Positions 1,928 through 32,000 are shown, counted from the first letter of the stretch. The stretch: DNA of 32,000 bases from Nanopusillaceae archaeon (GCA_049974095.1 JBMFJD010000010.1:1590-33589), one strand, 5' to 3'. Numbers and translations are program-made. The notes: generated by a model not told the origin, from the sequence alone.

Positions 1928-2848
1928 TTAATTTAAATTTAATTGAATTTTTATTTCACAGGCTCTACATATATCTCTTGTAGTAGGATAACCACAAATT
2001 TTACATTTCTTTAATTTTACCTTATTTTTCATTTTATATTCTTCCTTTGCCTTTAATAAAATTGGTAAGAAATTATTAATAAAATTCTCATGGAATTTAT
2101 TATATTTATTTTCTACTTCATATAATTTTGCCCTAACAATATCCCTAAATTGTCCTCTAATAAATGGACATTCTCCATATGGTGGTTCCAAATTATTTAT
2201 AACAGAATATAATAAATTTTCCTTTTCCCTATTAAAATAAAATGGTTTTATTCTAGGAATAAAATCTTCCTCAATTATTCCAACAAAAGGTCCTTCTTTT
2301 AATAAATCTTTTAAATTTCCTTCAAAGAAATTCATTAAAATTGTTTGTACTTCATCATTTATATTATGTGCAGTTGCAAATTTATCTAAATTTAAATCCT
2401 TTGCAGCTTTCCACATTAACCATCTTCTCCATACTCCACAAATTGTACATGCTCTATATTTTTTTGTTATTTTTACAGCATTATCTAATCTTATTTTAAA
2501 ATAATCAGTAAATTTATATATTTTAATATTCCAATTATATTTTTGAGCTAATTCTAATAATTTTTTTGTATCTTTATCTCTATATCCTGCAATTCCTTCA
2601 TCAATATGTATTCCATATACTTCTATATTAAAATAATCCTTGTATTTATTTAGAAAATATAACAATGCATTTGAATCTTTTCCTCCAGATACTCCAACTC
2701 CAATTCTTTCTCCAGGTTTAATTAATTTAAATCTTTCAATTGTATTAATTGCTTTTTCTTCAAAATATTTTATAAAATGTTCTTTACAATAATAATTTCC
2801 ATCACTATCCTTATATATTGCATTATTATTACAAAAAGAGCATTTCAT
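1928..2848 (-). CDS. TtuA/Ncs6-type PP-loop tRNA 2-thiolation enzyme
   Basis: 306 aa. N-terminal CxxC...CxxH finger (CSFC...CKEH), PP-loop SGGKDS, central CTIC plus GECPF cysteines (Fe-S ligands), and a C-terminal CKIC...CRAC finger. Confidence 0.75.
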   Translation of the reverse strand: MKCSFCNNNAIYKDSDGNYYCKEHFIKYFEEKAINTIERFKLIKPGERIGVGVSGGKDSNALLYFLNKYKDYFNIEVYGIHIDEGIAGYRDKDTKKLLELAQKYNWNIKIYKFTDYFKIRLDNAVKITKKYRACTICGVWRRWLMWKAAKDLNLDKFATAHNINDEVQTILMNFFEGNLKDLLKEGPFVGIIEEDFIPRIKPFYFNREKENLLYSVINNLEPPYGECPFIRGQFRDIVRAKLYEVENKYNKFHENFINNFLPILLKAKEEYKMKNKVKLKKCKICGYPTTRDICRACEIKIQLNLN

Positions 2849-3861
2849 TTATTTATTTCTCTTATAAAGTAATCTCTTATTGCAGGTACAACATCATAAA
2901 TAAATTTACTCTTAACCTTTGTTCTTACTAATAGTTTTGCTTCAACCATTCTTTTTAATATATTAGACAATGAATGTATTGTTGTATCAGAATATCTCTC
3001 TTTAAATAACTTTAATAATTCATTAACTCCTTTTGGTCCATATTTTGTTAATAATTCAATAATGTATCTTTGTTTTTCAGTTAATTTTAATATATCTGTA
3101 GGTGGTTTTTTATTTTCATATATTTTTTCAATTATTTCTCTATCAATTATATTTTTTCTTTCTCTATATGCAATTAATAATGATTCATATGAATATTTTA
3201 ATATTTCTCTTGGTAATCCTCCAGATAAATGATATATTTCTTCAATTGCATCATCTGTAAATAAACCAGGATTTCCTGCTAATTCTAATCTTTTCTTAAT
3301 TAATAATTTTCCACTTTCAGGATCTAAAGATTTTAAATATATTTTTGTTAGAATTCTTTCATATAATGTTCTATGTTCTTTTATTAATTTTTCTTCAAAT
3401 TCTGGTAATCCTGCTAAAATAAATGTACATTTTGTTTGATCAGATAATATTTTTATCCATTCAATTATATCATTATTAAAAAATGTTGCTTCATCAATAA
3501 AAATTATCATTTCTTTTTTATTTAGATAATCTAATAGATTAAATTGTTTAAATTTATATATTATTTTTTCAAAAAAAGAAAATCCAGCCTTTATATATTT
3601 TTCTAATTCTTCTTTTTCATTAAAAGGTCTATAAATATATATTTTATTCTTTTTATCTAAATTATTAAATGTCCATAATAATAATGTAGTTTTTCCAGCA
3701 CCTGTAGGGCCAGAAACTAATATTATCTTTTCTTTATTATTTATTGCATTAATTAATTTTTCTCTTTCTAAATTATATCCTACAAATGTTTCTAAAATTA
3801 CTTCTAATTTAAATGGGTTATTTTTTAGATTAAAGAATTTTAACATTTCTTCATTATTCAT
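2845..3861 (-). CDS. ExeA/AAA_22-like AAA ATPase with C-terminal winged-helix domain
   Basis: 338 aa. N-terminal FFNLKNNPF (ExeA-like FGL..PF motif), Walker A GPTGAGKT, Walker B IIFIDEA, and a C-terminal helix-turn-helix-like region. A 4-nt overlap couples it to the downstream thiolase gene. Confidence 0.6.
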   Translation of the reverse strand: MNNEEMLKFFNLKNNPFKLEVILETFVGYNLEREKLINAINNKEKIILVSGPTGAGKTTLLLWTFNNLDKKNKIYIYRPFNEKEELEKYIKAGFSFFEKIIYKFKQFNLLDYLNKKEMIIFIDEATFFNNDIIEWIKILSDQTKCTFILAGLPEFEEKLIKEHRTLYERILTKIYLKSLDPESGKLLIKKRLELAGNPGLFTDDAIEEIYHLSGGLPREILKYSYESLLIAYRERKNIIDREIIEKIYENKKPPTDILKLTEKQRYIIELLTKYGPKGVNELLKLFKERYSDTTIHSLSNILKRMVEAKLLVRTKVKSKFIYDVVPAIRDYFIREINK

Positions 3862-10321: not shown

Positions 10322-11473
10322 ATGGATATAAAAGAAAATTTTAATATAATAGAGGAGTTCTATACCTATGTAAAAAAGTTTAATGATAAGCTAATAGAAC
10401 TAAATAAGGCATTAAATAAATATGTAGAAAAAACAGAATTTTATGATCAATTAGATGGATTAAGAGAAGAATTAGAAGAAGTTAAAAAATCATTAGATAA
10501 TTATAAATCATATTTAAATGAAGATGTATTAGAAAAAATAAGATATATACAAGATATCAAATTAAAAGTAGATGTATTAGAAAATAATCAGAAAAATTTT
10601 GTTGATTATTCATATTTAGTAGATATAAAATCTAAATTAAATAAATTGGAAGGAGAAATAAATGATTTATTAACAAAAGTATCAAATTCTGAAGAAAAAA
10701 TTAAAGAATTCGAAGAAGAAAAAGAAAAAATATCACAAATAGATAATAAATTAGAAGAAATAAATAATAATTATGTAAATAAAGAAGAATTTGAAAAAAT
10801 AAAACAAGAAATAAATAAGGTTACTGAAGCTGTTTCAAAAACATTAGAAAAAATATCCTCAGATTTAATACAATATAATAAATTGTTAGAAGATGTATCA
10901 GAAATAAAAGAAAAGGAACTATTTCAAATAAACAATAAAATAGAAGAATTAGAAGAAAAATATAAGAAAATAGATAAAGATTTTGATAAAAAAATTGGAG
11001 AAATGAGTTATTTATTAGAAATAAAAGAAGAAGATATAAAAAATATTAAAAATATAAAGATAGCAGAAGAATTGTATAATAAATATGTTAATTTTGAAAA
11101 TAGATTAAATGGTATGTATACATTATTTGAAGATCTTCAAAATATTGTAAATGATATAAAAAATAAAACACAAGATATAGAAAAGGTAAAAGAATTTGAA
11201 AATAAAATGAATGAATTAGAAAGTAAAATGGGAAATCTTAGAAATGAGCTAAATGATTTGAAATATGAAATATTGGATTCAAAAGATATTGTAGAAACAG
11301 TATTAGCAGATTATGAAAAAATGGAAAATAGAATAAAAAGAATAGAAAATGTTTTACAATTAACGAACTTTGATTATATTGTTGGAGAAGTTGAAAAGAT
11401 TAAAGAATTAGAGAATGATATAGAGAATATAAAAAGGGAATTATATGAAAGAAGAATAAGTACTAGATCTTAA
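10322..11473 (+). CDS. long coiled-coil protein, unknown function
   Basis: 383 aa, almost entirely K/E/N/I/L heptad-like sequence with recurring ..K(L/I/M)(N/E)EL(E).. units. No P-loop or other enzymatic motif. Confidence 0.55.
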   Translation: MDIKENFNIIEEFYTYVKKFNDKLIELNKALNKYVEKTEFYDQLDGLREELEEVKKSLDNYKSYLNEDVLEKIRYIQDIKLKVDVLENNQKNFVDYSYLVDIKSKLNKLEGEINDLLTKVSNSEEKIKEFEEEKEKISQIDNKLEEINNNYVNKEEFEKIKQEINKVTEAVSKTLEKISSDLIQYNKLLEDVSEIKEKELFQINNKIEELEEKYKKIDKDFDKKIGEMSYLLEIKEEDIKNIKNIKIAEELYNKYVNFENRLNGMYTLFEDLQNIVNDIKNKTQDIEKVKEFENKMNELESKMGNLRNELNDLKYEILDSKDIVETVLADYEKMENRIKRIENVLQLTNFDYIVGEVEKIKELENDIENIKRELYERRISTRS

Positions 11474-11932: not shown

Positions 11933-11941
11933 ACTTTATAT
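11933..11941 (-). promoter_or_regulatory. TATA-like box (ATATAAAG on minus strand) for the C/D sRNA
   Basis: Centred about 27 nt upstream of the sRNA 5' end. It overlaps the ATG of the divergent peptidase gene. Confidence 0.35.
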
Positions 11942-12920
11942 GTATGAAATAATTCCAATGCTAATTGTCGATTCTATTATTTTAGGAATATCTTCTTATC
12001 AGGATATAAAATATAAATCTGTTGATGATATCATTATTTATTCTTTATTTATTTTTAATATATTTTACTTTCTTTTTTTAATTTATTTAGGATATTATCC
12101 TCAAAATATTTTATTTTCTTATTTTATTCTTCTACTTTTTATAATTTTATATTCTCTAAGATTATTAGCAATTGGGGATCTATATGTATTTTTCTCTATT
12201 TTCTTATTATTATCATATTTTTCTCTAAATAGTCTATTTTTATTCTTCTTTTATTTATTTCTTTTTGGATTTATATTTCATAATCTTGAAGGGGCAAAAA
12301 TATTTTATAAGAATAATAATAAATATTTCTATTTATCTATTTTAGATATAATAATTATTTTGCTTTCTATTTACTTTATTTATAATTTCTTTTTCTCCTA
12401 TTCAATTCTTTATCTATTTATTTCTTTAATATTTTTATATATTTCATATTTTATCTTTAGAATATTTGAAAAAGAATTAAGGGAAAAATTAACATTTAGG
12501 AGAAAAGCAGAAGAGCTTGTTGAGGGGGATTGGATTGAAGATAATATTGAGTTAGAAAAAATAGAAGAAGAAGATATGAATTTATTATTAAAATATTTTG
12601 ATGTAGAAAGAAAAGAAAAATATATTTTAAGATTTAAGAAGGAAAAAATATATAATAAAATTTTATTAATAATTATCTCTATTTTACCAATTATTTTTTA
12701 TATAATCTCTCTTAAGTTCTTTATATTTTCAATTATAATAATACTATTATCTTTTCATATATTTCAAAATAAAATATTCAAAGGAAGGAAAGGTTTATCA
12801 AAAGAAGAAATTGAAGTTTTAAAGAAGGTATCTAAATATAATAAAATAGAATTTAATGTATATGAAGGAGCTCCATTTGTTCCACCAATATTCTTTGCCT
12901 TAATATTATTAATAATATGA
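11940..12920 (+). CDS. FlaK/PibD-type (A24 family) prepilin/prearchaellin peptidase-like membrane protein
   Basis: 326 aa, polytopic. SSYQDIKYKSVDDIII matches the first catalytic-Asp region of FlaK (ASVQDFRSREIEDYIW as I recall it). The second Asp, in LLAIGDL, lies 58 aa later (61 in FlaK). There is a charged soluble insert and a C-terminal APFVPPIFF. Confidence 0.6.
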   Translation: MYEIIPMLIVDSIILGISSYQDIKYKSVDDIIIYSLFIFNIFYFLFLIYLGYYPQNILFSYFILLLFIILYSLRLLAIGDLYVFFSIFLLLSYFSLNSLFLFFFYLFLFGFIFHNLEGAKIFYKNNNKYFYLSILDIIIILLSIYFIYNFFFSYSILYLFISLIFLYISYFIFRIFEKELREKLTFRRKAEELVEGDWIEDNIELEKIEEEDMNLLLKYFDVERKEKYILRFKKEKIYNKILLIIISILPIIFYIISLKFFIFSIIIILLSFHIFQNKIFKGRKGLSKEEIEVLKKVSKYNKIEFNVYEGAPFVPPIFFALILLII

Positions 12921-13952: not shown

Positions 13953-15002
13953 ATGAAAAGAAGATATCAAACAATGGCAGTAGGTTTATTTTTTGTACTA
14001 TTAGGTCTTGCTTTATTAATATATTGGATTCTATTACCAGTTCCTTCTAAACAACAGCTCCTTCAAGAAATACTAAATCAAACAAATATTTCAATGCAAA
14101 CAAGTCAAATAACTACACAGATATCTCAACAATATCAATATGAAAATATTGAATTATCGACTTCTTCTATTTATTATTATATTGCTAATAATTATACTAT
14201 AGGAAATTATATTCCATCATATATAATTTATTTAGGAAATTCAAAATTTCAATCTAATATATTTTATGGTAAGATAAGTAAGGAATACTATTTTTATTTT
14301 TCTAATAATTCATTGGGAGTTAATTTAACAGCAATTTTTTCATGCAGTAATGGATATTTTGACATATACATTAATGGTCAAGAAATCTATTCTGGATGTC
14401 AAAACGGACAATTTAGTATATTTATTCCTTCTTCATATTTAATATATGGAGAGAATGGATTAAAAATAGAATTTGTACCAGATAGTATAATATTTAATGG
14501 ATTTGGAGAAATAAATAATTTAGAAATAACCTATTTACAACAAAATTCTTTATCTTTCTCTTATTATTATGTTTCTGGAAATGCATATATGTACTATGAT
14601 TTTTGTCCATATTATCCTCAAGATGTGGAATTAATAGTAAATAATTTATCCATACCTCTTTCTTCATGTTCTGGTTTATTTTATTTAACACCATATTTGA
14701 ATATTGGGGAAAATAATATTGAATTAATATCTTCATATCCAGTTAATATTAATCAATTATATTTACAATCTAATCAACATTTATTTTTTATATTATTTCC
14801 AAATAATATAGAAAATAATTTGCTAGAAGTTATAGTAAGTAAAGGAGAAGGAACTATGATATTAAATAATAACTGTGTTTATTATGTAAATTCTGAGCAA
14901 TCTGTATATGCAATCAATATTTCTAATTGCTTATTACCTGAAAATATTTTAGAAATAAGGCCAACAGGATATTTATATATTTCATATTTACAAATATCAT
15001 AA
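13953..15002 (+). CDS. exported/anchored surface protein 1 (unknown family), three Cys-pair modules
   Basis: 349 aa. N-terminus is MKRRYQT plus a hydrophobic helix. N/S/Y/I/Q-rich with few charged residues, 6 Cys and many N-x-S/T sequons. The unit C-x17-20-C...[GP]EN-x-[IL]-[EK]-[IL] occurs three times. Confidence 0.65.
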   Translation: MKRRYQTMAVGLFFVLLGLALLIYWILLPVPSKQQLLQEILNQTNISMQTSQITTQISQQYQYENIELSTSSIYYYIANNYTIGNYIPSYIIYLGNSKFQSNIFYGKISKEYYFYFSNNSLGVNLTAIFSCSNGYFDIYINGQEIYSGCQNGQFSIFIPSSYLIYGENGLKIEFVPDSIIFNGFGEINNLEITYLQQNSLSFSYYYVSGNAYMYYDFCPYYPQDVELIVNNLSIPLSSCSGLFYLTPYLNIGENNIELISSYPVNINQLYLQSNQHLFFILFPNNIENNLLEVIVSKGEGTMILNNNCVYYVNSEQSVYAINISNCLLPENILEIRPTGYLYISYLQIS

Positions 15003-15003
15003 A

Positions 15004-16230
15004 ATGAGAAAAAAGAGTGGTGCTGGTGCTGTCTTTCTTCTATTTATATTGGTAGCTATTGGTATTCTCTTTTACTTTTATGGGGGAAGAATTATACAAG
15101 CAGTTGAAGTATATATGTACAATCCAGGAAGTTCTAGTATTATTCAAGCTGGAGAAAATTTATTCAATGGATTTTACGGATCTTTGCAAGCAGTTTATAA
15201 TATTCTATCAAATCCTGAGCAATATGCAGAAAAACAATTAATGCAAACAGAACCTGCAAATCAACAGGTTTATTCTTATACCATAAATTTACAACCATTA
15301 CAGTCTCTACCAGGTTTAATAGAAAAAGATGGAAATACTACCCAAACAGAAGTAGAATATGAATTTGAATATTCTTTACCTGCAAATGAAATACAAAATA
15401 ATCAAGTAGAATTTATATGTAATAGTAGTTATCCTTCATTACTTAATGGATGTTTTATAGATTTTCCAACTACTTCTAATGTTCAACCATCTTCAACATC
15501 AATATCTAGTCCTTTTCAAGTTCAAACAGTAGTATGTCAAATTCCATCATTTCAAATAAATACGTCTAATTGTAATTCTATTTTATCATTAGGCTTTACT
15601 ATAGATAATAATATTAAAGCTATTATAAATGATGTTATGAGTAGTACTAAATATAATTTCTTGGCAGTAAGTGCTACAATTGCTGCATATGCGAATGCTA
15701 ATAATGAAAATATTTATACATACCTAAAAATAAATCCATCTGGATACGATGTTGGAATCTATAATGGAGTTTATAATTTACCATATATAGAAATTGGAAG
15801 AGCAGGAAAAGAAAGTGGATATCCTGTTTTATTAGAAAATAATCAAACTGCATATGATGTAATATTTATTAGTTTAGATTCTATTAATGGGATAAAAAAG
15901 ATTAATTCATGGACCCTTTCATTTATTTATGATCCGTCACAAATTAATTTAGAATATTTAAATGGAAATCAATGTACTAATTCTTATTCTTTTGGAAATA
16001 ATCGAGAATATGAAATATCATGCAATAATAATAATTGTAATATATATGTAAATTCAGATTTTTTGAAAATATTACAAAATAATGGACAATTGTTAATTTT
16101 AGCAATACCTTTATGTATGCAACCAGGTTCCAGTTTCCAAGGATATACAACAGTAACAATTATTTCAAATATTAGTTATAATTATTTGCTGTCATCTTCT
16201 GCTACTATAAATTATTATACATCTTCATAG
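15004..16230 (+). CDS. exported surface protein 2 (unknown family), class III-like signal
   Basis: 408 aa. MRKKSG/AGAVFLLFILVAIGILFYF resembles a type IV pilin (class III) signal. It has 8 Cys and is N/S/T/Q/Y-rich. There is a 1-nt gap to the upstream gene. Confidence 0.65.
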   Translation: MRKKSGAGAVFLLFILVAIGILFYFYGGRIIQAVEVYMYNPGSSSIIQAGENLFNGFYGSLQAVYNILSNPEQYAEKQLMQTEPANQQVYSYTINLQPLQSLPGLIEKDGNTTQTEVEYEFEYSLPANEIQNNQVEFICNSSYPSLLNGCFIDFPTTSNVQPSSTSISSPFQVQTVVCQIPSFQINTSNCNSILSLGFTIDNNIKAIINDVMSSTKYNFLAVSATIAAYANANNENIYTYLKINPSGYDVGIYNGVYNLPYIEIGRAGKESGYPVLLENNQTAYDVIFISLDSINGIKKINSWTLSFIYDPSQINLEYLNGNQCTNSYSFGNNREYEISCNNNNCNIYVNSDFLKILQNNGQLLILAIPLCMQPGSSFQGYTTVTIISNISYNYLLSSSATINYYTSS

Positions 16231-16265
16231 AAATGTTTATATTTTATTAAATAGAAAAATTAAAT

Positions 16266-17249
16266 ATGAAGACAAATAAAGTATTATCTATATTACCAAT
16301 TTTTCTTTTAGGAACAACCCTATTTTATTTTTCTTCATGTCCAACAGTAAATATTAATACTGGAAGCGGAGGAAGTTCTGGAAGTACAGTTCAATTCACA
16401 CAACCATCGTGGGCAATAAATCAGGCAGGAAATGTACAAATAACTATACAATCTCCATCTATGTTATTCTATAATCCAAATTTAGGATTATCATATACAT
16501 TACCAATGTCATATACAAATTCTATATATACTGAATCTAATAATCAATTAACAGTAACATATCAAATAGCTACCTATGGAAATATATCTCCATCTTCTGG
16601 TTCATTTACTCCTCAAACTCCTATATATAATCCATCATCAAAGTCTATTACTGTAATTACATATCCTTTACAAGCATTACAACTTAAATTACCTTCTGGA
16701 TTACAAGCAGTTCCATCTTCTCTCCTAATTGAGATACAATATAATATAAGTAATGTACAAACAAATATAGAAATACCATTAATATTAAAAAATACAAATT
16801 CTGGAATAACTCTTACAGAACCAATTTATTATTCTTCTTCTCCAGTTATTCCAACTTCTAATAGTATTCAGATAACAGAAGGTGGTGGATATGCAACATT
16901 TTCTCTTTCTCTAGAAGATGCTTTAGGATGTTTTAGTGCAATGAATCCTTCATTAGGAGAAATTCCAGAGATAAATATAGATAATACAGTACTTCAACTA
17001 AATGCTGGAGGACAATTAATTAATGTACAAAATGGTCAAAACGGATTTGATTGTGCACCAACAGGAACAATACCTTTGCAATCAGCAGCAATAGTATGTC
17101 AAATAAATATGAATCAATTAGCATCTTCCTATCCATCTATACAGAGCGCTTTAAGTTCTAATGTTGGTGTTATAGGAGGAGTATTAATTAATATAACATA
17201 TAACTGTGAAGAACAAACTTCCTTTAGTATACCATTAAATGAAACATAG
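16266..17249 (+). CDS. exported surface protein 3 (unknown family), lipobox-like signal
   Basis: 327 aa. The signal is MKTNKVLSILPIFLLGTTLFYFSSC. It has 4 further Cys and is S/T/N/Q/P-rich with few charged residues. Confidence 0.65.
   Translation: MKTNKVLSILPIFLLGTTLFYFSSCPTVNINTGSGGSSGSTVQFTQPSWAINQAGNVQITIQSPSMLFYNPNLGLSYTLPMSYTNSIYTESNNQLTVTYQIATYGNISPSSGSFTPQTPIYNPSSKSITVITYPLQALQLKLPSGLQAVPSSLLIEIQYNISNVQTNIEIPLILKNTNSGITLTEPIYYSSSPVIPTSNSIQITEGGGYATFSLSLEDALGCFSAMNPSLGEIPEINIDNTVLQLNAGGQLINVQNGQNGFDCAPTGTIPLQSAAIVCQINMNQLASSYPSIQSALSSNVGVIGGVLINITYNCEEQTSFSIPLNET
16287..16340 (+). repeat. 54-nt signal-peptide-coding repeat, copy 1
   Basis: tct-a-tattaccaatttttcttttaggaacaaccctattttatttttcttc-a-tgt matches 17257-17310 with 2 mismatches, including a 46-nt perfect core. 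Confidence 0.9.
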
Positions 17250-18117
17250 GATTTTTTCTGTATTACCAATTTTTCTTTTAGGAACAACCCTATTTTATTT
17301 TTCTTCTTGTATTTCTCTTAGTAATCAATCTTCTACTACGCAGTCTTCTTCTACATATTCTAAAGCTAGTTTTTATTTTGATGTTTATACAGGTCCGGGT
17401 TTTTCTCCCTATGTTTATCCAAATGTACCATTTCAGGTTCCAATAATTATTAGTACTTCTAATCCAAATTTTCAATGGACTATATGTTTAGCAAGTTTAC
17501 CAAATGGATTTGCAATAAGTGGAAATACATGTTATTCTTCATCAAATATTGCATATAATAATTATAATCAGACTCAAATATATTTACCATATAATGGAAA
17601 TATAACATTAACTGATCCTTCTCTTTTATCTTCTAATAACATAAATCTAAATATATATGAATGTTATCAATATGAAAGTTCTTATTATATACAAGGTTGT
17701 TTTGAAAATCAGCAATGTTCATATACTTTCCAATCTTTTACACAAAATGATCCTATACAAATAAATAATATAAATGCAATACGTACATCAAATGGATATT
17801 TATTAAATATTTATGTTAGTATAAATAGAGGATCATCAGTATTTGATATTACTACAAATAATATTATAAATAAATGTAATCCAAATAATATTAATTTATT
17901 GAATTATTCTTTATATTATAATCTAACTTTGTTTATTAATGGAAATTCATACTATTATAATGGTTATTTAACATTTCCTTCCAATTCGAATAATTATGAA
18001 ATCTCTATACCAATTAATTATCAAGGAACAAATGAATATATTTTTGGTAATTTGGCATTTTACTATTATATATTTGAAGAAAATACAATTGCAACATTAA
18101 ATGTACAAACTTCATAA
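17239..18117 (+). CDS. exported surface protein 4 (unknown family), lipobox-like signal, signal-module paralog of protein 3
   Basis: 292 aa. The signal is MKHRIFSVLPIFLLGTTLFYFSSC. It has 6 further Cys and, by hand count, about 6% charged residues. It overlaps the upstream gene by 11 nt. Confidence 0.65.
   Translation: MKHRIFSVLPIFLLGTTLFYFSSCISLSNQSSTTQSSSTYSKASFYFDVYTGPGFSPYVYPNVPFQVPIIISTSNPNFQWTICLASLPNGFAISGNTCYSSSNIAYNNYNQTQIYLPYNGNITLTDPSLLSSNNINLNIYECYQYESSYYIQGCFENQQCSYTFQSFTQNDPIQINNINAIRTSNGYLLNIYVSINRGSSVFDITTNNIINKCNPNNINLLNYSLYYNLTLFINGNSYYYNGYLTFPSNSNNYEISIPINYQGTNEYIFGNLAFYYYIFEENTIATLNVQTS
17257..17310 (+). repeat. 54-nt signal-peptide-coding repeat, copy 2
   Basis: Matches 16287-16340 (offset 970 nt). 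The rest of the two genes shows no comparable nucleotide identity. Confidence 0.9.
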
Positions 18118-23340: not shown

Positions 23341-25653
23341 ATGGATCTAAAAAAAGATTATGATAAATTATTATGTAAAATAATAAAAAATAATCATAGA
23401 GGAATAATAGTAATATCTGGAAGTAATTATTTTGATATAATTTCAGATTTAATTAATAGGTATTATGAAATAATAAAGAATTTTAGACAAGACATAAATA
23501 TATTATATGTTACAGAGGATTATTATGGAGACTTTTTATATAGATTTGAAAAATTGGAAGAAAAGTTAAAAGATTTTAATATAACAAAAATAAAATATAA
23601 AGATTCTAGAAAAATATTAGGAAAGACATTTAATATAATAATTTTGGATATGTATAAATCTTTAACGCCAGATCATTTAGGAAGGATAATAGAAACATTA
23701 TCTGGTTCAGGAATAGCATTTTTCTTAATAAAAGATTTTGAAAATTTTGAAAATATTACAACAACATTTCATGAGCATTTATTAACTCCTCCATATAAAA
23801 TAGAAGATGTAAGAAAATATTTTGAATATAGATTTAAGCAAAAATTATTGCAATACGATAATATAATAATATATGATACAGAAAAAGGATTAATAAAGGG
23901 AATAAATGAAGAATGCAATGTAGAGGAAGCAGTTCCACCAGAAAGGAAAAAGTTAATATTAAATGAAAAGAAAATTTTTTCAGATAGAATATATAAATTA
24001 TGTTTAACACAAGATCAAGCAAATGTATTAAGTATGTTAGAAGATTTGTTAAATAATGAAAAATCAATATTTTTAATAATTGCTGATAGAGGAAGAGGAA
24101 AAAGTGCATCTTTGGGATTAGCAATTGCAGGATTAGTAGAAATATTATTGGAAAAAAATAAAATATATGATATTGGGATAACTGCTCCAGAATTTGAAAA
24201 TGTGGAAACATTATTTGAATTTTTAAAAATAGGATTAAATGGAAATAATATAGAATATAAGGAGATTAAAAACAAGAAGATAATCATAAAAAATAAAATA
24301 TATATAGAATATAGAAAACCTTCAGATATATTAAGAAAAAAGTATGATATTTTATTTGTAGATGAAGCTGCAGGTATTGGTATATTATTTTTATATCAAT
24401 TTGTAAATAAATATAGAAAAGTAGTATTTTCTTCGACAATCCATGGATATGAAGGAGCTGGAAGATCTTTCTCTGTAAGATTTCTAAAATATTTGAATAG
24501 TCTAATTGGTATAAAGATATATAAATATAATATGATTGAACCTATTAGATATGGAGAAGGAGATCCAATAGAAAAATGGCTATATGATACATTATTATTA
24601 GATTCGGAGCCTGATGAGATCAATGAGGAAGATAAAGAATTGATTAAAAATAAAGAAACAAGATTTTATAAAATACCATTAAAAGATTGGTTTTATAATG
24701 ATGATCCTAAATTAAAGAATTTTGTAGGAATTTATATTTTAGCTCATTATCAAAATAAACCAAATGATATTGCAATGCTTGCAGATGCGCCACATCATGA
24801 TGCTTTTATATTAGAATTAAAAAATGGAAAAATTGTTGATGGAATACAAGTTGCATATGAAGGAGGGATTGATGATGAAACAATAGAAAGAATGTTAATG
24901 GATTATAAACCAAAGGGAAATATAATACCAGATATAATTGTAAAACATTATAGATTAAAAGAATTTGCAAAATTAAAGGGATTGAGAGTTATAAGAATTG
25001 CAACAACACCAGAAATACAAGGTATGGGATTAGGATCTATTTCATTACAAGAATTAACTGAATGGGGAAAGAAGAATAATTATGATTGGTTAGGATCTAG
25101 TTTTGGTGTTACACATGAATTATTAAATTTCTGGCAAAAGAATGGATTTGTTTTAGTTCATTTATCTCCTGAAAAAAATAAGGTATCCGGGGAATATTCA
25201 GGAATAGTATTAAAACCTTTAAATGAAGAAACAGAAAAAATTGTTAAAAAATTAAATTATGAATTTAGATGGAGATTAATAAATCAAATATCAGATGTAT
25301 ATTTTGATTTAGAACCAAAATTAATATTAAAAATGTTAGAAACTCCATATAAATTTAAACCACATTTTAAATTATTATTAACAGAAAATCAAATTGAAAG
25401 ATTAGAGGGATACTTAAAATCTCCAATGACATATGAAGCTGCTGCAGATGTTGTTAAATTATTATATCTATACTATTTAGTATATACTGATAAAGATAAA
25501 CCAAAGATTGAAGATGAAGAGATAATGGTTTCAAAATTTTTATTATCATGGAGCTTTAATAAATTATCAGAATATTTTAATTTAAAGAAATTTGAAGCAA
25601 GAAGAAAAATAAAGAAAAATGTAAAAATAATATATAAATGGTTATTTAAGTAA
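23341..25653 (+). CDS. tmcA: tRNA(Met) cytidine acetyltransferase TmcA (NAT10/Kre33 homolog)
   Basis: 770 aa. Helicase-type Walker A ADRGRGKSASLG, Walker B-like LFVDEAA, STIHGYEGAGR, and the GNAT acetyl-CoA motif RIATTPEIQGMGLGS. Confidence 0.85.
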   Translation: MDLKKDYDKLLCKIIKNNHRGIIVISGSNYFDIISDLINRYYEIIKNFRQDINILYVTEDYYGDFLYRFEKLEEKLKDFNITKIKYKDSRKILGKTFNIIILDMYKSLTPDHLGRIIETLSGSGIAFFLIKDFENFENITTTFHEHLLTPPYKIEDVRKYFEYRFKQKLLQYDNIIIYDTEKGLIKGINEECNVEEAVPPERKKLILNEKKIFSDRIYKLCLTQDQANVLSMLEDLLNNEKSIFLIIADRGRGKSASLGLAIAGLVEILLEKNKIYDIGITAPEFENVETLFEFLKIGLNGNNIEYKEIKNKKIIIKNKIYIEYRKPSDILRKKYDILFVDEAAGIGILFLYQFVNKYRKVVFSSTIHGYEGAGRSFSVRFLKYLNSLIGIKIYKYNMIEPIRYGEGDPIEKWLYDTLLLDSEPDEINEEDKELIKNKETRFYKIPLKDWFYNDDPKLKNFVGIYILAHYQNKPNDIAMLADAPHHDAFILELKNGKIVDGIQVAYEGGIDDETIERMLMDYKPKGNIIPDIIVKHYRLKEFAKLKGLRVIRIATTPEIQGMGLGSISLQELTEWGKKNNYDWLGSSFGVTHELLNFWQKNGFVLVHLSPEKNKVSGEYSGIVLKPLNEETEKIVKKLNYEFRWRLINQISDVYFDLEPKLILKMLETPYKFKPHFKLLLTENQIERLEGYLKSPMTYEAAADVVKLLYLYYLVYTDKDKPKIEDEEIMVSKFLLSWSFNKLSEYFNLKKFEARRKIKKNVKIIYKWLFK

Positions 25654-26886
25654 TTTTTTTAATACTTCAAAGAAATAATCAATTTCTTCCTTTGTATTAT
25701 AAATATATAAACTTGCTCTAAATGTTCCTCCTAAATTAAATAAATTATTATTGAAGATCTTAATGTTTTTTAATAATGGATGCGCACAATGAAAACCAGA
25801 TCTTACTTCAATTCCTTCTAGATCTAATAATTTTGCAATTTGATGTGAATTATATTTTTTAGTATAGAAGGAAAATGTTGGAGTTCTATCTTTATAATCA
25901 TTTGGTCCTATTAAAACCAAATCTTTTAAATTATATTCATTATATTTTTCAATAAAATATTTTGTTAAGAATTTATTGTATTCTTCTATATTTTCTATAC
26001 CAATTTCATTAATATATTTTATTGTTTCTCCAAATACAATTCCTCCAGCTATATTTGGTGTACCTGATTCAAATTTCCATGGTAAATCATTCCAATATGC
26101 TTCATATAAATCTACATCTTTTATCATATCTCCTCCCCTTAAAAATGGTTCTATTTTTTCTAATATTTCTTCTTTTCCATATAGTACTCCAATACCATCT
26201 GGTCCCATCATTTTATGAGCACTAAATGCTAAAAAATCTATATCATACTTTTTAACATCAATCTTCATATGTGGAATACTTTGTGCTGCATCAATTAATA
26301 CAATTGCTCCTCTTTCATGTGCAATTTTAATTATTTCTTCTATTGGATTTATCGTTCCCAATACATTTGAAGCATGAGTTATTGCAACAATTTTTGTTTT
26401 ATCATCAATAATTTTTTCTATATTATCTAATTTTAATCTATAATTATTATCAAAGTCTATATATTCTAATTTTGTACCTATCTTCTTCGATACAAATTGC
26501 CACGGTACTAAATTTGCATGATGTTCCATTTTTGATATTACAATTTTATCTCCATGTTTTAAATTATTTAATCCATAAGAATATGCAACTAAATTAATTG
26601 ATTCTGTAGTATTTCTTGTAAATATTATTTCTCTCCAATCTTTTGCATTAATAAAATCTGCAACTAATTTATGTGCTTCTTCATATTTTTCAGATGCTTC
26701 TTGAGATAATGTATGTATTCCTCTATGAATATTTGCATAATAATTTGTATATACTTCTAAGAATTTATTTATTACACTAATTGGTTTTTGAGTTGTTGCT
26801 GCATTATCAAAATATATTAAATTCTTTCCATTTACTTTTCTTTTTAATATAGGAAAATCTTCTCTAATTTTATATGGATCTATCAT
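25642..26886 (-). CDS. sufS: cysteine desulfurase SufS (class V aminotransferase)
   Basis: 414 aa. YFDNAATTQKP, PLP-lysine region FSAHKMMGPDGIGVLYG, and active-site region RSGFHCAHP. It lies immediately downstream of sufB. Confidence 0.9.
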   Translation of the reverse strand: MIDPYKIREDFPILKRKVNGKNLIYFDNAATTQKPISVINKFLEVYTNYYANIHRGIHTLSQEASEKYEEAHKLVADFINAKDWREIIFTRNTTESINLVAYSYGLNNLKHGDKIVISKMEHHANLVPWQFVSKKIGTKLEYIDFDNNYRLKLDNIEKIIDDKTKIVAITHASNVLGTINPIEEIIKIAHERGAIVLIDAAQSIPHMKIDVKKYDIDFLAFSAHKMMGPDGIGVLYGKEEILEKIEPFLRGGDMIKDVDLYEAYWNDLPWKFESGTPNIAGGIVFGETIKYINEIGIENIEEYNKFLTKYFIEKYNEYNLKDLVLIGPNDYKDRTPTFSFYTKKYNSHQIAKLLDLEGIEVRSGFHCAHPLLKNIKIFNNNLFNLGGTFRASLYIYNTKEEIDYFFEVLKKLLK

Positions 26887-28320: not shown

Positions 28321-28560
28321 ATGTATAGAATATATGAACTATGTGGAAAGAGCGATTATAGTATAAGATTTGATAAAAAAATAGATGTTAAAAAGGTAAA
28401 GGAATATTTTAAAGATTATGAAATAATAGATGAAAATGAAGAAACAATAAGTTTAAGAAAAGAAGAAAAAAATGTTATAGGATTTTCATATGGAGAAGTA
28501 ATTTTGGTTAATTTTAATATTGAAGAAGTTGAAAAAATAGCTAAATATATAGATAGTTAA
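28321..28560 (+). CDS. small hypothetical protein
   Basis: 79-aa ORF with composition similar to the other cytoplasmic proteins in the window. No family recognised. Confidence 0.4.
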   Translation: MYRIYELCGKSDYSIRFDKKIDVKKVKEYFKDYEIIDENEETISLRKEEKNVIGFSYGEVILVNFNIEEVEKIAKYIDS

Positions 28561-28594: not shown

Positions 28595-28669
28595 GCCCCC
28601 GTCGTCTAGTCAGGTCTAGGATACAGGGTTTTCGTCCCTGTGACCCGGGTTCAAATCCCGGCGGGGGCA
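28595..28669 (+). tRNA. tRNA-Glu (anticodon UUC), contiguous, no intron, CCA not encoded
   Basis: Acceptor GCCCCCG/CGGGGGC, anticodon stem CAGGG/CCCTG, loop TTTTCGT, T-arm CCGGG-TTCAAAT-CCCGG, discriminator A. Confidence 0.9.
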
Positions 28670-28696
28670 TTAGTTAACGATATTGATTAACAAATC

Positions 28697-28706
28697 TATA
28701 TAAATT
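28697..28706 (+). promoter_or_regulatory. TATA-like box TATATAAATT for the archaellin gene
   Basis: Centred about 26-27 nt upstream of ATG 28728. Confidence 0.4.
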
Positions 28707-28727: not shown

Positions 28728-29318
28728 ATGAAGGGCCAAGGTACAGGTTTTTCATCGATGGTATTATTTATAGCAGCAGCATTGACAGCAGCAATAGCAG
28801 CCTTTGTAATTATTGGTGCAACAACAAGTGCACAAGGACATGCAGCAGCAGCAGCACAACAAACAGTACAAACATCAGGTACAACTGTAGAAATAGTTAG
28901 AGTAGAAGGAATAAATGTAAATACAACAACACAAGCAGTACAAGAATTCTTAGTATATACAAGGTTAGCACCAGGATCACAACCAATATTATTAAATCAA
29001 ACATCAGTAATATTATATGCACCAGCTGGAAGAGAAGTATTTGTATATGGAGGAGCTGTAGCAGATTCATCATTAGTAACCAGTTATACAGGATACTACT
29101 TTATTGATCAACAGGATTCTGTAGATAATTCAGGATTGTTATTCAATGGTGTATTAGGTCCAAATGATCTAGCAGCATTATTAGTATATGCAAATGTAAC
29201 ATTAGGAACATCACAAACATGGGAAATTTCAATTATACCACCAAATGGACAACCATATGATCTATCAGGAATAACACCGGCTGCAATGGTATATCCAACA
29301 GTAGTATTATACGGCTAA
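28728..29318 (+). CDS. flaB: archaellin (FlaB/ArlB-type) with class III signal peptide
   Basis: The track ORF begins at TTG 28713. ATG 28728 gives MKG/QGTGFSSMVLFIAAALTAAIAAFVIIG, followed by ...VEIVRVEG...FLVYTRLAPGSQPILLNQTSVIL, which is typical archaellin-domain sequence. It has no Cys. Confidence 0.7.
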   Translation: MKGQGTGFSSMVLFIAAALTAAIAAFVIIGATTSAQGHAAAAAQQTVQTSGTTVEIVRVEGINVNTTTQAVQEFLVYTRLAPGSQPILLNQTSVILYAPAGREVFVYGGAVADSSLVTSYTGYYFIDQQDSVDNSGLLFNGVLGPNDLAALLVYANVTLGTSQTWEISIIPPNGQPYDLSGITPAAMVYPTVVLYG

Positions 29319-29319
29319 A

Positions 29320-29928
29320 ATGAAAGGGCAAGCTTTTCAAACCCTTTTTCTTTTTATATTTCTTGTTGCAATTGCAACAATAAGTAGTTATATATTAGTT
29401 GATGTTTATTTAAAAGGTGCTGGAGCAACATTAACAAAATTAGAAGTAAATCAACAACAATCTGCAGTACCTCAATTTGCAATTCATGATATTGAATATT
29501 CAGAATATGGTAGTACTGCAATAGTTACATTTACTTTATATAATTTAGGATCTACAAATATTCTACTGAGAGGATGGATGATTGATTTTACAGATCAAAA
29601 TGGAAATATAATATGTAGTACTCCAATTTTTGAAAGTACAGCAGATGCAGCAAATATTGGAGTATCAGAATCTGTATATGATGCTGCATATAATCAAACA
29701 TTAACTTATGGAGAAGCAATACCTGCTCATTCAGTTGCAGAAGTTAATTTAACATTCATTGGAGGAAATTGTTTAAACACAACAATTGATTGGTCTACAA
29801 CACATTTACAAATGGGATTTAGAGTAGTAATTTCACCAACACAATATTTTGATATAATGCAATGTGCTGTAAATCCATATACAGGATATGCCTCTTGTAG
29901 TTCTTTAGGCTATCAAGCTTATCAATAG
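29320..29928 (+). CDS. second class III-signal (pilin/archaellin-like, possibly ArlF/G-like) protein
   Basis: 202 aa. MKG/QAFQTLFLFIFLVAIATISSYIL shares the MKGQ signal with the archaellin. It has 4 Cys and a beta-rich, low-charge mature part. There is a 1-nt gap to the archaellin gene. Confidence 0.55.
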   Translation: MKGQAFQTLFLFIFLVAIATISSYILVDVYLKGAGATLTKLEVNQQQSAVPQFAIHDIEYSEYGSTAIVTFTLYNLGSTNILLRGWMIDFTDQNGNIICSTPIFESTADAANIGVSESVYDAAYNQTLTYGEAIPAHSVAEVNLTFIGGNCLNTTIDWSTTHLQMGFRVVISPTQYFDIMQCAVNPYTGYASCSSLGYQAYQ

Positions 29929-30082
29929 TTTTTTGACTAATAATTTTTGTTAAATAAAATAATTTTGACATAATTATAATAAATATAGGTAAAAATATGC
30001 TAAATTTCAATATTGATTATCAATGATGGTTTAAAATATGGGAAATCAAACTCTTTTATTTATCAAAATTCCATATTTTTTC

Positions 30083-32000
30083 ATGAGTATTAAATCTATT
30101 AAAAAATATATTATAATATTATTAGCTTTAGGTTTATTAGTAAGTAATTCTATTCATGCACAAGTCGGAGCAGTTTTAATAGGAAGTAGTACAACAACTA
30201 CAACTACATCTATAACATTACCTTCTGCAAATAATTATTTTTGCGTTGCAGGAGCAAATGGAGGTACAATTACCATCCCTAGCATTACAGAACTTGTAAA
30301 TAATGGTGGTTATGCAGTTATTGGTAATTCTTCTACAAATAGTTGTTCTATCACTACTACTGCAACATCTTATGCTCTAGGAGGGATAAGTATAAATAAT
30401 TATTCTGTATTTTCTATAATAACAACTTATACAAATACATATAAAAAATCTGCTACTGGTAGTTTTTCTTTTACTTTATCAGGACAAAATTATACTGTAT
30501 ATATTTTAATTGCTGCAGGAGGTAATAAAGGAACAGCATATGTAAGTACAGTTACTCCGCCTTCCGGATGTACTCAAATATTTAATACTCCTTCAGGAAC
30601 TGCAGCATCAGTATATGCAGCAGAATGTAAGGATTTGGCCCCAGGAACTTATTCAGTATCTTTTAAAGTTGTTCAAGGTGGAGGTTCTACAGTTTATGTC
30701 TCTGCTTTGGTTGTAGGATATCCTATATTTACGTTTAATCTAACTCCTTCTAATAATTCTATAGTAAATATACCTGGTAAAACATCAAATACAACAATAT
30801 ATGTTACTCAATTAACCGGTAATACTCCTTTACAAGTTAATTTATCTTGTTCTACATCTAATGCAAATTTAGGTTGTTATTTCTCTTCTAATTCTGTAGT
30901 ACCAAACAATTCAGTAACTTTATATATAAATTCTACAACAGGTATAGCTCCAGGAACTTATACAGTTACTGTAAATGGTATAGCCGAAAATAATGCAACT
31001 AATTCTACAACAATAACTGTTACAGTTCCTCCAGAAACAATAAATGTATCTGCTAATCCAAATCAAATAACACTAATTCCTGGAGAATCAAAATCTTCTA
31101 CAATAACAGCATCAGATAATTATGGAAATAGTTTAAATATATCCGCATCTTGTCCATCTCAATTAATATGTTCATTCAATGGACAAACTTCTGTAATAGT
31201 ACCAAATGGAGGATCTACAATATTAAATATTACAGTTCTAAATTCAGCTTCTCAAGGTACATATACGATAAATGTTACAGCAACAGATATTGTAACAAAT
31301 CAAACACAGGTTAATGTAATAGTCGTAATAGAAAGCGTAATTATAACATTAAATCAATCTTCTGGAAATGTAAATCCAGGTCAAAGTGTTTCAATAAATG
31401 TTAGTGCAAATAACACATTAGGAAATAATATGACATTAGAATGTTTATCACCTTCTGGAGTAACATGTTCTCCAATTCAAGTTAATATAACTTCTGGAAG
31501 TAGTTATATATTTACAATAACTGCTCCATCAAATGTAAATAATTATCAACAATATAATATAACCTTTTTAGGAATAGATGTAAATACTGATGTATTAAAT
31601 TCTTCAATATTTACATTAAATGTATATCCTTATCCACAAACATATATTATTTCTCCATCAAATAATACTGTCAGTAATTATTATGCATTAAATATAACAT
31701 TCTATACAAATAGTCCAACAGTAAATGTAACAATAAATGGAAATACATATACAATAAATGTAACACCAGGAAACAATTTAATACAGTTATTATATAATAA
31801 TTCTTCATATGGATTGCCAGGATTGCATAATATTATACCAAATGGTGGTAATTTAACAATACAAATAGTAGCATTTAATCCATTGGGAGAAGCAAATTCA
31901 ACAGGAGTTTATGTATATACATTACCTGCACCAGTATTAAATGTTTCATATATTCCTCCAACTCCAGCAAATGGAACAGTATCAAATTATTGGTTATTAC
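30083..32000 (+). CDS. large secreted repeat-domain surface protein (S-layer/adhesin-like), 3' end outside window
   Basis: This frame is open to position 32000 (hand-checked at several points). It is absent from the track because no stop falls in the window. Sec-type signal MSIKSIKKYIIILLALGLLVSNSIHA/Q, with an alternative ATG at 30038. T/S/N-rich, many sequons, and tandem domains of about 100 aa with paired Cys. Confidence 0.7.
   Translation, partial: MSIKSIKKYIIILLALGLLVSNSIHAQVGAVLIGSSTTTTTTSITLPSANNYFCVAGANGGTITIPSITELVNNGGYAVIGNSSTNSCSITTTATSYALGGISINNYSVFSIITTYTNTYKKSATGSFSFTLSGQNYTVYILIAAGGNKGTAYVSTVTPPSGCTQIFNTPSGTAASVYAAECKDLAPGTYSVSFKVVQGGGSTVYVSALVVGYPIFTFNLTPSNNSIVNIPGKTSNTTIYVTQLTGNTPLQVNLSCSTSNANLGCYFSSNSVVPNNSVTLYINSTTGIAPGTYTVTVNGIAENNATNSTTITVTVPPETINVSANPNQITLIPGESKSSTITASDNYGNSLNISASCPSQLICSFNGQTSVIVPNGGSTILNITVLNSASQGTYTINVTATDIVTNQTQVNVIVVIESVIITLNQSSGNVNPGQSVSINVSANNTLGNNMTLECLSPSGVTCSPIQVNITSGSSYIFTITAPSNVNNYQQYNITFLGIDVNTDVLNSSIFTLNVYPYPQTYIISPSNNTVSNYYALNITFYTNSPTVNVTINGNTYTINVTPGNNLIQLLYNNSSYGLPGLHNIIPNGGNLTIQIVAFNPLGEANSTGVYVYTLPAPVLNVSYIPPTPANGTVSNYWLL
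30734..31633 (+). repeat. three tandem ~100-aa domain repeats (coding) inside the surface protein
   Basis: The units are 30734-31033, 31034-31336 and 31337-31633. Each has PG(K/E/Q)(T/S)..., then (S/E)C-x(4-8)-C, and two end in GTYT(V/I)(T/N)V. Confidence 0.6.

Follow-up and report, generated by a model that had tools for sequence, protein, structure and literature searches.

A conserved major-archaellin locus in a nanoarchaeon, with a divergent four-cysteine partner gene, a large surface protein and no motor genes alongside

Why should an archaellin gene stand apart from the genes of the archaellum motor, with a second archaellin-like start just behind it and a large exported protein next in line? 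This question is raised by the last part (positions 28,728 to 32,000) of a stretch of 32,000 nucleotides (nt) from a Nanopusillaceae archaeon (GCA_049974095.1, JBMFJD010000010.1:1590-33589), the whole of which we call the window. An original prediction, made from the sequence alone, had offered two answers: either the archaellum locus is fragmented in this genome, or the filament works together with an adhesin or S-layer-type protein, for example as a tether rather than a swimming organelle. Three genes are concerned:

28728..29318, + strand: gene 1, the major archaellin ArlB, 196 residues (aa); ATG at 28728 and TAA at 29316-29318; recognised by PF01917 and profile matches
29320..29928, + strand: gene 2, a putative divergent archaellin-superfamily protein of 202 aa; MKG/Q start (the slash marks the predicted cleavage), four Cys and an N125-x-T sequon
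30086..32000, + strand: gene 3, a surface protein with a Sec signal, of which the N-terminal 638 aa are seen before it runs off the window end; ATG at 30086, placed by ortholog alignment

The explanation that we consider likely is that this is a conserved major-archaellin locus, in which gene 1 serves a swimming archaellum, gene 2 encodes a minor subunit, gene 3 has a promoter of its own and the motor genes lie elsewhere. The gene identities, homology, synteny and shared promoter motif come from the present analysis, while filaments, motility, expression and glycosylation were described in relatives by others; from both we deduce the operon structure, the minor-subunit role of gene 2 and the co-regulation of gene 3.

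Gene 1, which had been described as archaellin-like, is a genuine archaellin. A search with Pfam Arch_flagellin (PF01917) was positive at 71.3 bits against a gathering cut-off of 29.5, with residues 6-177 on profile positions 3-158 of 162. When the profile of its family (A2) was compared with the PDB, archaellum-filament subunits were matched nearly over their full length: 5z1l (E 5.2e-12, residues 4-185), 7ofq_A (E 3.4e-10, residues 7-190) and 5o4u (E 3e-9), and also 8rh5 and 9eq7. The protein begins MKGQGTGF (start MKGQGTGFSSMVLFIAAALTAAIAAFVIIG), and a class III-type leader followed by a hydrophobic N-terminal helix can be read from it, with cleavage predicted at MKG/QGTGFSSMVLFIAAALTAAIAAFVIIGA. 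It holds three N-glycosylation sequons and no Cys. At 90% identity to the archaellins of Nanobdella aerobiophila and YN1 it is the most conserved protein of the neighbourhood; across genomes its identity is 88-90%, whereas the housekeeping neighbours show just 58-91%.

Motor genes were sought with Pfam and NCBIfam models in every window open reading frame (ORF) of at least 100 aa. None of ArlC, D, E, F, G, H, I or J was found in the 32 kb by these scans, and the statement that arlC-J do not follow the archaellin is thus borne out. Two weak matches were rejected: a FlaC_arch match at 10322-11473 is no ArlC but a generic coiled coil with SMC/Rad50-type matches, and a T2SSE match at 2845-3861 is no ArlI, as it is confined to the Walker A region of an AAA_22/PEP-CTERM-type ATPase. 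What the scans did bring up were housekeeping genes, among them Obg-like GTPase, RtcB, PolB, aRF1, eIF2-alpha, TmcA, SufS and SufBD, and in all six reading frames MKGQ occurs at two places only, the starts of genes 1 and 2. The window is AT-rich, with 18-30% GC per kb and about 23% overall. Its source is a nanoarchaeon of the Nanobdellaceae/Nanopusillaceae, related to YN1 and N. aerobiophila: the nearest homologs of genes 1 and 2 carry the names Nanopusillaceae, Nanopusillus, Nanobdella aerobiophila and 'Nanoarchaeota archaeon YN1'. Housekeeping identities of 58-84% to MJ1 and 74-91% to YN1 mark it as a species distinct from both.

Exact look-ups of the window's gene 1 and gene 2 proteins led to no contig; in their place, the closest complete genomes, those of MJ1 (AP019769.1, locus L007) and YN1 (AP031373.1, locus L021), allowed the arrangement to be followed beyond the window end. 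Upstream, both have the order of the window: TmcA, SufS, SufBD, an ORF of 79-80 aa, tRNA-Glu, a 196-aa archaellin and a 205-aa gene 2 ortholog. A large protein (1132 or 1219 aa) follows, and then a Trm5/TYW2-type methyltransferase, a 283-aa archaellin that passes PF01917, the tRNA-splicing endonuclease EndA and an aminoacyl-tRNA synthetase. No arlH, arlI or arlJ lies within 10 kb on either side of these two loci, and no canonical arlCDEFGHIJ cluster, whose presence would have spoken against the original prediction, stands directly downstream in either. The tRNA keeps its place in all relatives examined (L001, L007 and L021):

28595..28669, + strand: tRNA-Glu(UUC), found by ARAGORN, directly 5' of the archaellin gene

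The window, MJ1 and YN1 have SufS (window 25642-26886, - strand) and the conserved 79-aa ORF (28321-28560, + strand) between TmcA/SufBD and tRNA-Glu, whereas the corresponding stretch of the Nanopusillus loci L001 and L003 lacks the two.

The motor-less orthologous loci of two complete genomes bear out a fragmented archaellum locus. Scattered arl genes have, however, already been described for the clade, so that the fragmented locus, though rightly predicted, is known. ArlH, ArlI and ArlJ are reported elsewhere in the genomes of MJ1 (bioRxiv 10.1101/2023.10.27.564410), YN1 (PMC11420986) and Nst1 (PMC3655853); the MJ1 annotation lists ArlB, H, I and J only (bioRxiv 10.1101/2023.10.27.564410), and Nst1 has all archaellum components (Podar et al., PMC3655853; Makarova et al., PMC4858521), including two archaellins of 197 and 283 aa (arCOG01829; Makarova et al., PMC4858521). 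As far as the filament itself is concerned, the idea of a tether that replaces swimming is contradicted, since MJ1 and strain YN4 swim and the MJ1 archaellin is 90% identical to gene 1. Free cells of N. aerobiophila carry 9-nm archaella and about a quarter of them swim (Gaisin et al., PMC11104419). The major archaellin MJ1_0453, which we take to be the gene 1 ortholog from gene order and from the equation of a neighbouring protein (P0035) with MJ1_0452, is the product of the second most transcribed MJ1 gene (bioRxiv 10.1101/2023.10.27.564410). In the swimming strain YN4, ArlB is a glycoprotein and its gene the second most expressed (bioRxiv 10.64898/2026.06.04.730037). An archaellin without motor genes beside it is thus the normal, published arrangement in the Nanobdellaceae/Nanopusillaceae, whose archaella drive swimming. 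What seems to remain new is an unannotated gene 2 family, a candidate promoter element shared by two probable transcription units and a recurring neighbourhood of the large protein.

Gene 2 opens at ATG 29320, one base past the gene 1 stop and with the same MKGQ start (MKGQAFQT; start MKGQAFQTLFLFIFLVAIATISSY), just as predicted. It is found directly 3' of the archaellin in the window and in all nine loci fetched from relatives, where the gap is 1 nt or, if an upstream ATG (MAKMKGQ) was called as the start, an overlap of 8 nt. Its mature part had been called Cys-containing and unrelated to the archaellin. The Cys are there, at residues 99, 151, 182 and 193, and a pair of disulfides is probable; the supposed lack of relationship did not hold. 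Comparison of the extended gene 2 family (A3) with the archaellin family (A2) in hhalign gave a probability of 92.7% (E 4.3e-7) over 141 columns, in an alignment that extends well past the N-terminal helix. PF01917 scores lie below the 29.5-bit threshold: the window protein reaches 13.6 bits (E 0.088) and its MJ1 counterpart 25.3 bits (E 2e-5). Such sub-threshold matches were seen in six of the 16 family members (best E 1.3e-5). The best PDB sequence matches, with weak scores, are again archaellin-type: 8fk7 'Flagellin' (E 0.019) and 7ofq.

An exhaustive profile search recovered distant gene 2 relatives of 152-210 aa. Their full-length members start MKGQ, MKAQ, MRSQ or MRGY and continue with a hydrophobic stretch; C99, C182, C193 and N125 are retained, and C151 nearly always. 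A first AlphaFold2 (AF2) model, built from close homologs alone, reached a predicted local distance difference test score (pLDDT) of 63 and was replaced once the distant members had been added. The model from the deeper alignment (pLDDT 84.2) has a helix of 47 residues (3-49) and a beta sandwich (53-194). Foldseek compared it with the PDB and returned nothing at E <= 1e-3, the top of the list being generic sandwiches of the immunoglobulin (Ig)-like type (adaptin ear, Fab, carbohydrate-binding module) with template-modelling (TM) scores of 0.2-0.37; adenovirus-knob matches to the first model (TM about 0.2) had been discarded as meaningless. The composition is of the exported type, with K at 1.5%, where cytoplasmic proteins have 12%, and with sequons about five times as dense. 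We conclude from these comparisons that gene 2 would belong, as a divergent member, to the superfamily of archaellin/type IV filament subunits, a remote homolog whose product most likely serves as a minor component of the filament, exposed in part. Databases annotate it as hypothetical or 'LTD domain-containing', and the Kato preprint does not list the MJ1 ortholog (P0035, MJ1_0452; YN1_0210 in YN1) among ArlB-like proteins (bioRxiv 10.1101/2023.10.27.564410). As a set of conserved four-Cys remote archaellin relatives, the family does not seem to have been described before. Its identity to relatives (63-74%, versus 88-90% for gene 1) means much faster evolution. The window protein is nearest to the Nanopusillus type (74%), then YN1 (67%) and MJ1 (63%), whereas the flanking housekeeping proteins are nearest to YN1 (74-91%); this pattern of closeness in genes 2 and 3 suggests recombination or diversifying selection in surface genes.

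Two other roles for gene 2 have to be set against that of a minor filament subunit. ArlF and ArlG begin with a hydrophobic helix that leads into a beta sandwich like that of archaellins, much as predicted for gene 2. Makarova et al. class both with the archaellins as 'minor archaellins' (PMC4858521). As the MJ1 annotation of only ArlB, H, I and J leaves F and G open (bioRxiv 10.1101/2023.10.27.564410), and as gene 2 is less constrained than the archaellin, it might be a divergent ArlF/ArlG-type periplasmic stator or anchor protein retained beside arlB. We find this quite improbable. The NCBIfam ArlG equivalog NF052591 matched none of the 16 gene 2 family members at E <= 1; it did weakly match gene 1 and the 283-aa archaellin, through the N-terminal helix alone. 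Single FlaF and FlaG genes are already assigned elsewhere in Nst1 (PMC4858521) and FlaF is annotated in YN1 (PMC11420986), the leader is identical to the MKG/Q of the archaellin and is kept in distant members, and a predicted helix of 47 residues has the length of a filament subunit's. Gene 2 might otherwise be the pilin of another type IV filament, such as the rough 15-nm appendage of N. aerobiophila, and have merely its promoter in common with the archaellin. Nanoarchaeota are reported to possess two type IV pilus systems besides the archaellum, whose cognate pilins have not been identified (PMC6142677; PMC4858521), free MJ1 cells bear a second type of appendage of unknown identity (PMC11104419), and the protein is too divergent for archaellin thresholds. 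The coupling to arlB by a 1-nt gap or an overlap in every examined genome nevertheless suggests a shared fate, and the best remote matches are archaellins and not Pilin_N-type pilins; the chance that we give to this possibility is equally small. Both are weaker alternatives to a minor subunit of the archaellum.

Gene 3 follows after a spacer of 157 nt. The Sec-signal surface protein that had been predicted to run off the window end is present as an open frame of 638 codons from 30086, with the signal MSIKSIKKYIIILLALGLLVSNSIHA/QV. An upstream ATG at 30038 is a less likely start, since the alignment with the N. aerobiophila ortholog begins at residue 5 of the frame that opens at 30086. The MJ1 protein (L007:10720-14118, 1132 aa) is 61% identical over 654 columns, collinear with its first 659 residues, so that the full length of gene 3 is probably about 1100-1200 aa; the partial YN1 alignment gives 51% over 473 aa. 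Within the window part there are 33 sequons in 638 aa, a density of 5.2 per 100 aa, where cytoplasmic proteins have 0.2-0.5. The label of a giant repeat-domain protein fits in part: three modules of Ig-like type, divergent in sequence and ~100 aa long, can be made out by eye, all with two Cys close together and with weak Ig-like matches in Pfam, but a BLASTP self-comparison detected no significant internal repeats, so that tandem sequence repetition was not upheld. In the orthologs the C-terminal half appears to be an asparagine-rich parallel beta-helix, a stretch that falls past the window end here. Beta_helix (PF13229) matches them weakly, at 22.2 bits in L009 against a cut-off of 25.9, and precomputed matches to it exist for P0046, P0047, P0049 and the YN1 ortholog. 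Genomes contain several paralogs of this family each, with lengths of 909-1219 aa. By locus-tag order the MJ1 ortholog should be MJ1_0451, which has been described from structure prediction as pectin lyase-like with Ig folds, while for the S-layer Kato et al. name MJ1_0160 and MJ1_0707 instead (both bioRxiv 10.1101/2023.10.27.564410). NEQ300 is another proposed nanoarchaeal S-layer protein.

Are the three genes expressed as one unit? The spaces before gene 1 and between genes 2 and 3 contain the following features:

28681..28693, + strand: 13-nt promoter-proximal element TATTGATTAACAA; the putative TATA box of gene 1 follows 4 nt downstream
29929..29936, + strand: T-run TTTTTTG, a putative archaeal oligo-T terminator read from the sequence, directly after the gene 2 stop
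30011..30023, + strand: second copy of the 13-nt element, TATTGATTATCAA, a near-palindrome TTGAT-N-ATCAA, ~10 nt upstream of the putative TATA box of gene 3

The putative TATA box of gene 1 (TATATAAA, 28697-28704) lies about 24-31 nt before the ATG, a distance from which the mRNA would be leaderless or nearly so. Genes 1 and 2 are probably co-transcribed, and the oligo-T run would end their transcript; a run of six or seven T right behind the gene 2 stop is kept in the window, MJ1 and YN1. Because of this run and of a TATA-like box of its own (TTTAAAATA), gene 3 is probably a separate transcription unit. The proposed clustering of three genes accordingly survives as adjacency of gene 3, and probably not as a shared transcription unit. 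A scan for sigma-70 promoters and intrinsic terminators was set aside as inapplicable to archaea. Two exact copies of TATTGATTANCAA are present in the 32-kb window where 0.13 would be expected, a number that none of 100 shuffles reached. Upstream of the archaellin the 13-mer is retained in MJ1, YN1 and Nanopusillus. MJ1 has it exactly at the gene 3 ortholog too (L007 10649), and in YN1 it is exact before the archaellin, ~12 nt more distant from the gene than its counterparts in the window and MJ1, with one mismatch before the gene 3 ortholog (L021 10647). An element common to both promoters suggests that the two units may be regulated together; it does not seem to have been described before.

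The Nanopusillus counterpart of gene 3, which shares 63% identity with the MJ1 protein across the C-terminal 620 residues, occupies another locus. There, as in N. acidilobi and Nst1, it comes after two divergent T2SSF genes, an ORF of 228 aa and tRNA-Lys. The T2SSF genes together span an ArlJ/TadC-type platform protein, the N half covering model positions 16-248 and the C half 270-543:

L009 4986-7809, and L011 and L017 9117-11940: split FlaJ/TadC-type genes, N half (282-288 aa) on the - strand, C half (418-426 aa) on the + strand

The C-half gene overlaps the 228-aa ORF by 4 nt. This ORF starts MKSQSWIEVLITLAVFLYIV (MKSQSWIEV) and continues with a hydrophobic stretch, a pilin-like beginning with Glu at +5 if cleaved after Ser. 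We dropped the idea of a split ArlJ, as Nst1 holds an intact FlaJ of 549 aa in the table of Makarova et al. (PMC4858521). Given this and the four FlaJ/TadC homologs with which Nanoarchaeota are credited, the split genes probably belong to another type IV filament system. A contig scan with the T2SSF protein reached Nanopusillus and Nst1 only, and not Nanobdella. The position of a gene 3 ortholog beside FlaJ/TadC-type genes and a pilin-like ORF seems not to have been described before. A 165-166-aa protein with a weak Pilin_N match lies ~5.5 kb downstream of the Nanopusillus gene 3 ortholog (L009 16546-17046; L020 7447-7944); its length suggests that it is the 'Flagellar protein G' paralog that Makarova et al. 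list for Nst1 (arCOG03871, 166 aa).

What, then, ties gene 3 to the archaellin? The adjacency could be a neutral rearrangement accident in a compact genome, devoid of any functional or regulatory link, and we regard this as a real possibility, although we lean against it. The different locus in Nanopusillus and Nst1 would fit such an accident, as would the tRNAs that flank both contexts (tRNA-Glu 5' of the archaellin locus, tRNA-Lys directly before the Nanopusillus gene) and the multi-paralog family with lengths that vary between 909 and 1219 aa. Yet both of the alternative places adjoin type IV filament genes, and a 13-mer found exactly twice where 0.13 copies are expected, and kept in two other genomes, tells against it. 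At the other extreme, the three genes might form a single module in which gene 2 acts as an adaptor and the filament carries, or cooperates with, the gene 3 protein, so that the archaellum doubles as a device for host recognition or adhesion. N. aerobiophila archaella do have a corrugated proximal segment of 76 nm and sporadic thorn-like densities, unlike other known archaella (PMC11104419); the composition of both structures is unknown, and the thorns could be gene 3 protein. The trio is kept in the window, MJ1 and YN1, the near-palindromic element recurs exactly in both promoters with conservation in MJ1 and YN1, the ortholog in Nanopusillus, N. acidilobi and Nst1 sits in a second, independent type IV filament neighbourhood, and genes 2 and 3 are both fast-evolving, as host-facing proteins would be. 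Against a module, the Nanopusillus and Nst1 pair stands directly before Trm5, and adjacency to the archaellin is evidently not required; gene 3 is preceded by a terminator-like T-run and a TATA box of its own, and its product bears a Sec signal; chance adjacency is likelier in small, compact genomes; and the authors who described MJ1_0451 proposed host cell wall degradation and not a filament role (bioRxiv 10.1101/2023.10.27.564410). We consider the module unlikely. The filament working with an adhesin or S-layer-type protein, as originally proposed, is likewise at odds with Nanopusillus and Nst1, where the large protein does not come after the archaellin pair. The 13-mer and the second neighbourhood lend some support to a looser tie of the large protein with type IV filament genes: that it adjoins such genes in two separate settings hints at a functional connection.

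We return to the explanation that we prefer, the conserved major-archaellin locus. Gene 1 would supply the major archaellin of a rotating, swimming archaellum, with arlH, arlI, arlJ and the others encoded elsewhere, as is the norm of the clade. Gene 2 would be translated from the same, probably leaderless, mRNA; because it has the same three-residue class III leader MKG/Q, its product is probably processed and inserted by the archaellin machinery, and it could take the part of a minor subunit, for instance in a specialised segment or at a surface-exposed position of the filament. Gene 3 would be transcribed from its own promoter behind the oligo-T terminator to give a Sec-exported, heavily N-glycosylated product with Ig-like modules and a beta-helix. 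Owing to the shared 13-nt element, the gene 1-gene 2 unit and gene 3 may be induced together while the cells are free and in search of a host.

Several points weigh against this explanation. The 13-mer was spotted after the fact, in a very AT-rich genome, and the operon structure was read from spacing and motifs alone. Gene 2 misses the PF01917 cut-off and matched no NCBIfam archaellin model, the Foldseek list contained no solved archaellin, and its fast evolution argues against a stoichiometric core subunit. Makarova et al. identified no prepilin peptidase in two nanoarchaea (PMC4858521), which makes cleavage of the MKG leader a prediction only. The MJ1 tags 0453, 0452 and 0451, finally, were mapped through one named protein and gene order.

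For research on DPANN symbionts the locus offers leads. Gene 2 could explain the odd segments or decorations on N. aerobiophila archaella, and a candidate promoter element links the archaellin with a fast-evolving glycoprotein. More speculatively, the gene 2 family would be a clade-specific archaellum component, belonging to the corrugated segment or to the attachment of the thorns, the filament together with co-regulated gene 3 would find and bind hosts, and TTGAT-N-ATCAA would be the operator of a free-stage regulon; we hold this combination to be distinctly unlikely.

A further lead lies elsewhere in the window, where a class III signal peptidase may be encoded in a lineage for which none had been identified. 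At 11940-12920 (+ strand) there is a polytopic membrane protein of 326 aa with two sub-threshold Pfam matches in the correct order: Peptidase_A24 (E 0.0016, residues 12-113 on profile positions 4-102 of 104) and the archaeal A24 C-terminal domain Arc_PepC (E 0.0099). Asp22 (SSYQDIKYKSVDD) and Asp80 (AIGDLY) presumably sit at the places of the catalytic aspartates of PibD and FlaK, and we regard the protein as a candidate divergent class III signal peptidase. Behind it, 13953-18117 (+ strand) holds four consecutive ORFs of 349, 408, 327 and 292 aa without a family match and of an extracellular type, with 1-2.7% K, 4-7 sequons and 5-8 Cys each. The second has a class III-like start, MRKKSG/AGAVFLLFILVAIG; the last two are paralogs with a common signal, ..ILPIFLLGTTLFYFSSC, that resembles a lipobox.

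Among known systems, the canonical arl (fla) operon of Euryarchaeota and Crenarchaeota runs arlB-arlC/D/E or arlX-arlF-G-H-I-J. Like the locus described here, it begins with one or more archaellin genes bearing class III leaders. Minor archaellins are commonly co-transcribed with the major one, FlaB3 of Methanococcus being an example, and the filament of Methanocaldococcus villosus is built of two alternating ArlB subunits (PDB 7ofq). The difference lies downstream, where the window locus has no accessory, stator, ATPase or platform genes; these lie elsewhere, as is known for terrestrial Nanoarchaeota, and neither arlC/D/E or arlX nor arlF-J is found at the locus, be it in the window or within 10 kb on either side of L007 and L021. 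Type IV pilins and ArlF/ArlG resemble gene 2 in the short positive leader ending in Gly, the hydrophobic N-terminal helix and the beta-sandwich head, while gene 2 differs in its four conserved Cys and passes no curated model for archaellin, ArlG or Pilin_N. In Nanopusillus acidilobi and Nst1, tRNA-Glu, a 197-aa archaellin and a gene 2 ortholog of 202-205 aa recur, with Trm5 and the 283-aa archaellin further on; in contrast to the window, the archaellin-gene 2 pair there leads directly to Trm5 with no large protein between, and SufS is missing from the upstream region. The closest counterparts are the MJ1 locus (MJ1_0453, 0452 and 0451) and that of YN1, which equal the window in gene order and spacing, with protein identities between the window and MJ1 of 90%, 63% and 61% for genes 1, 2 and 3.

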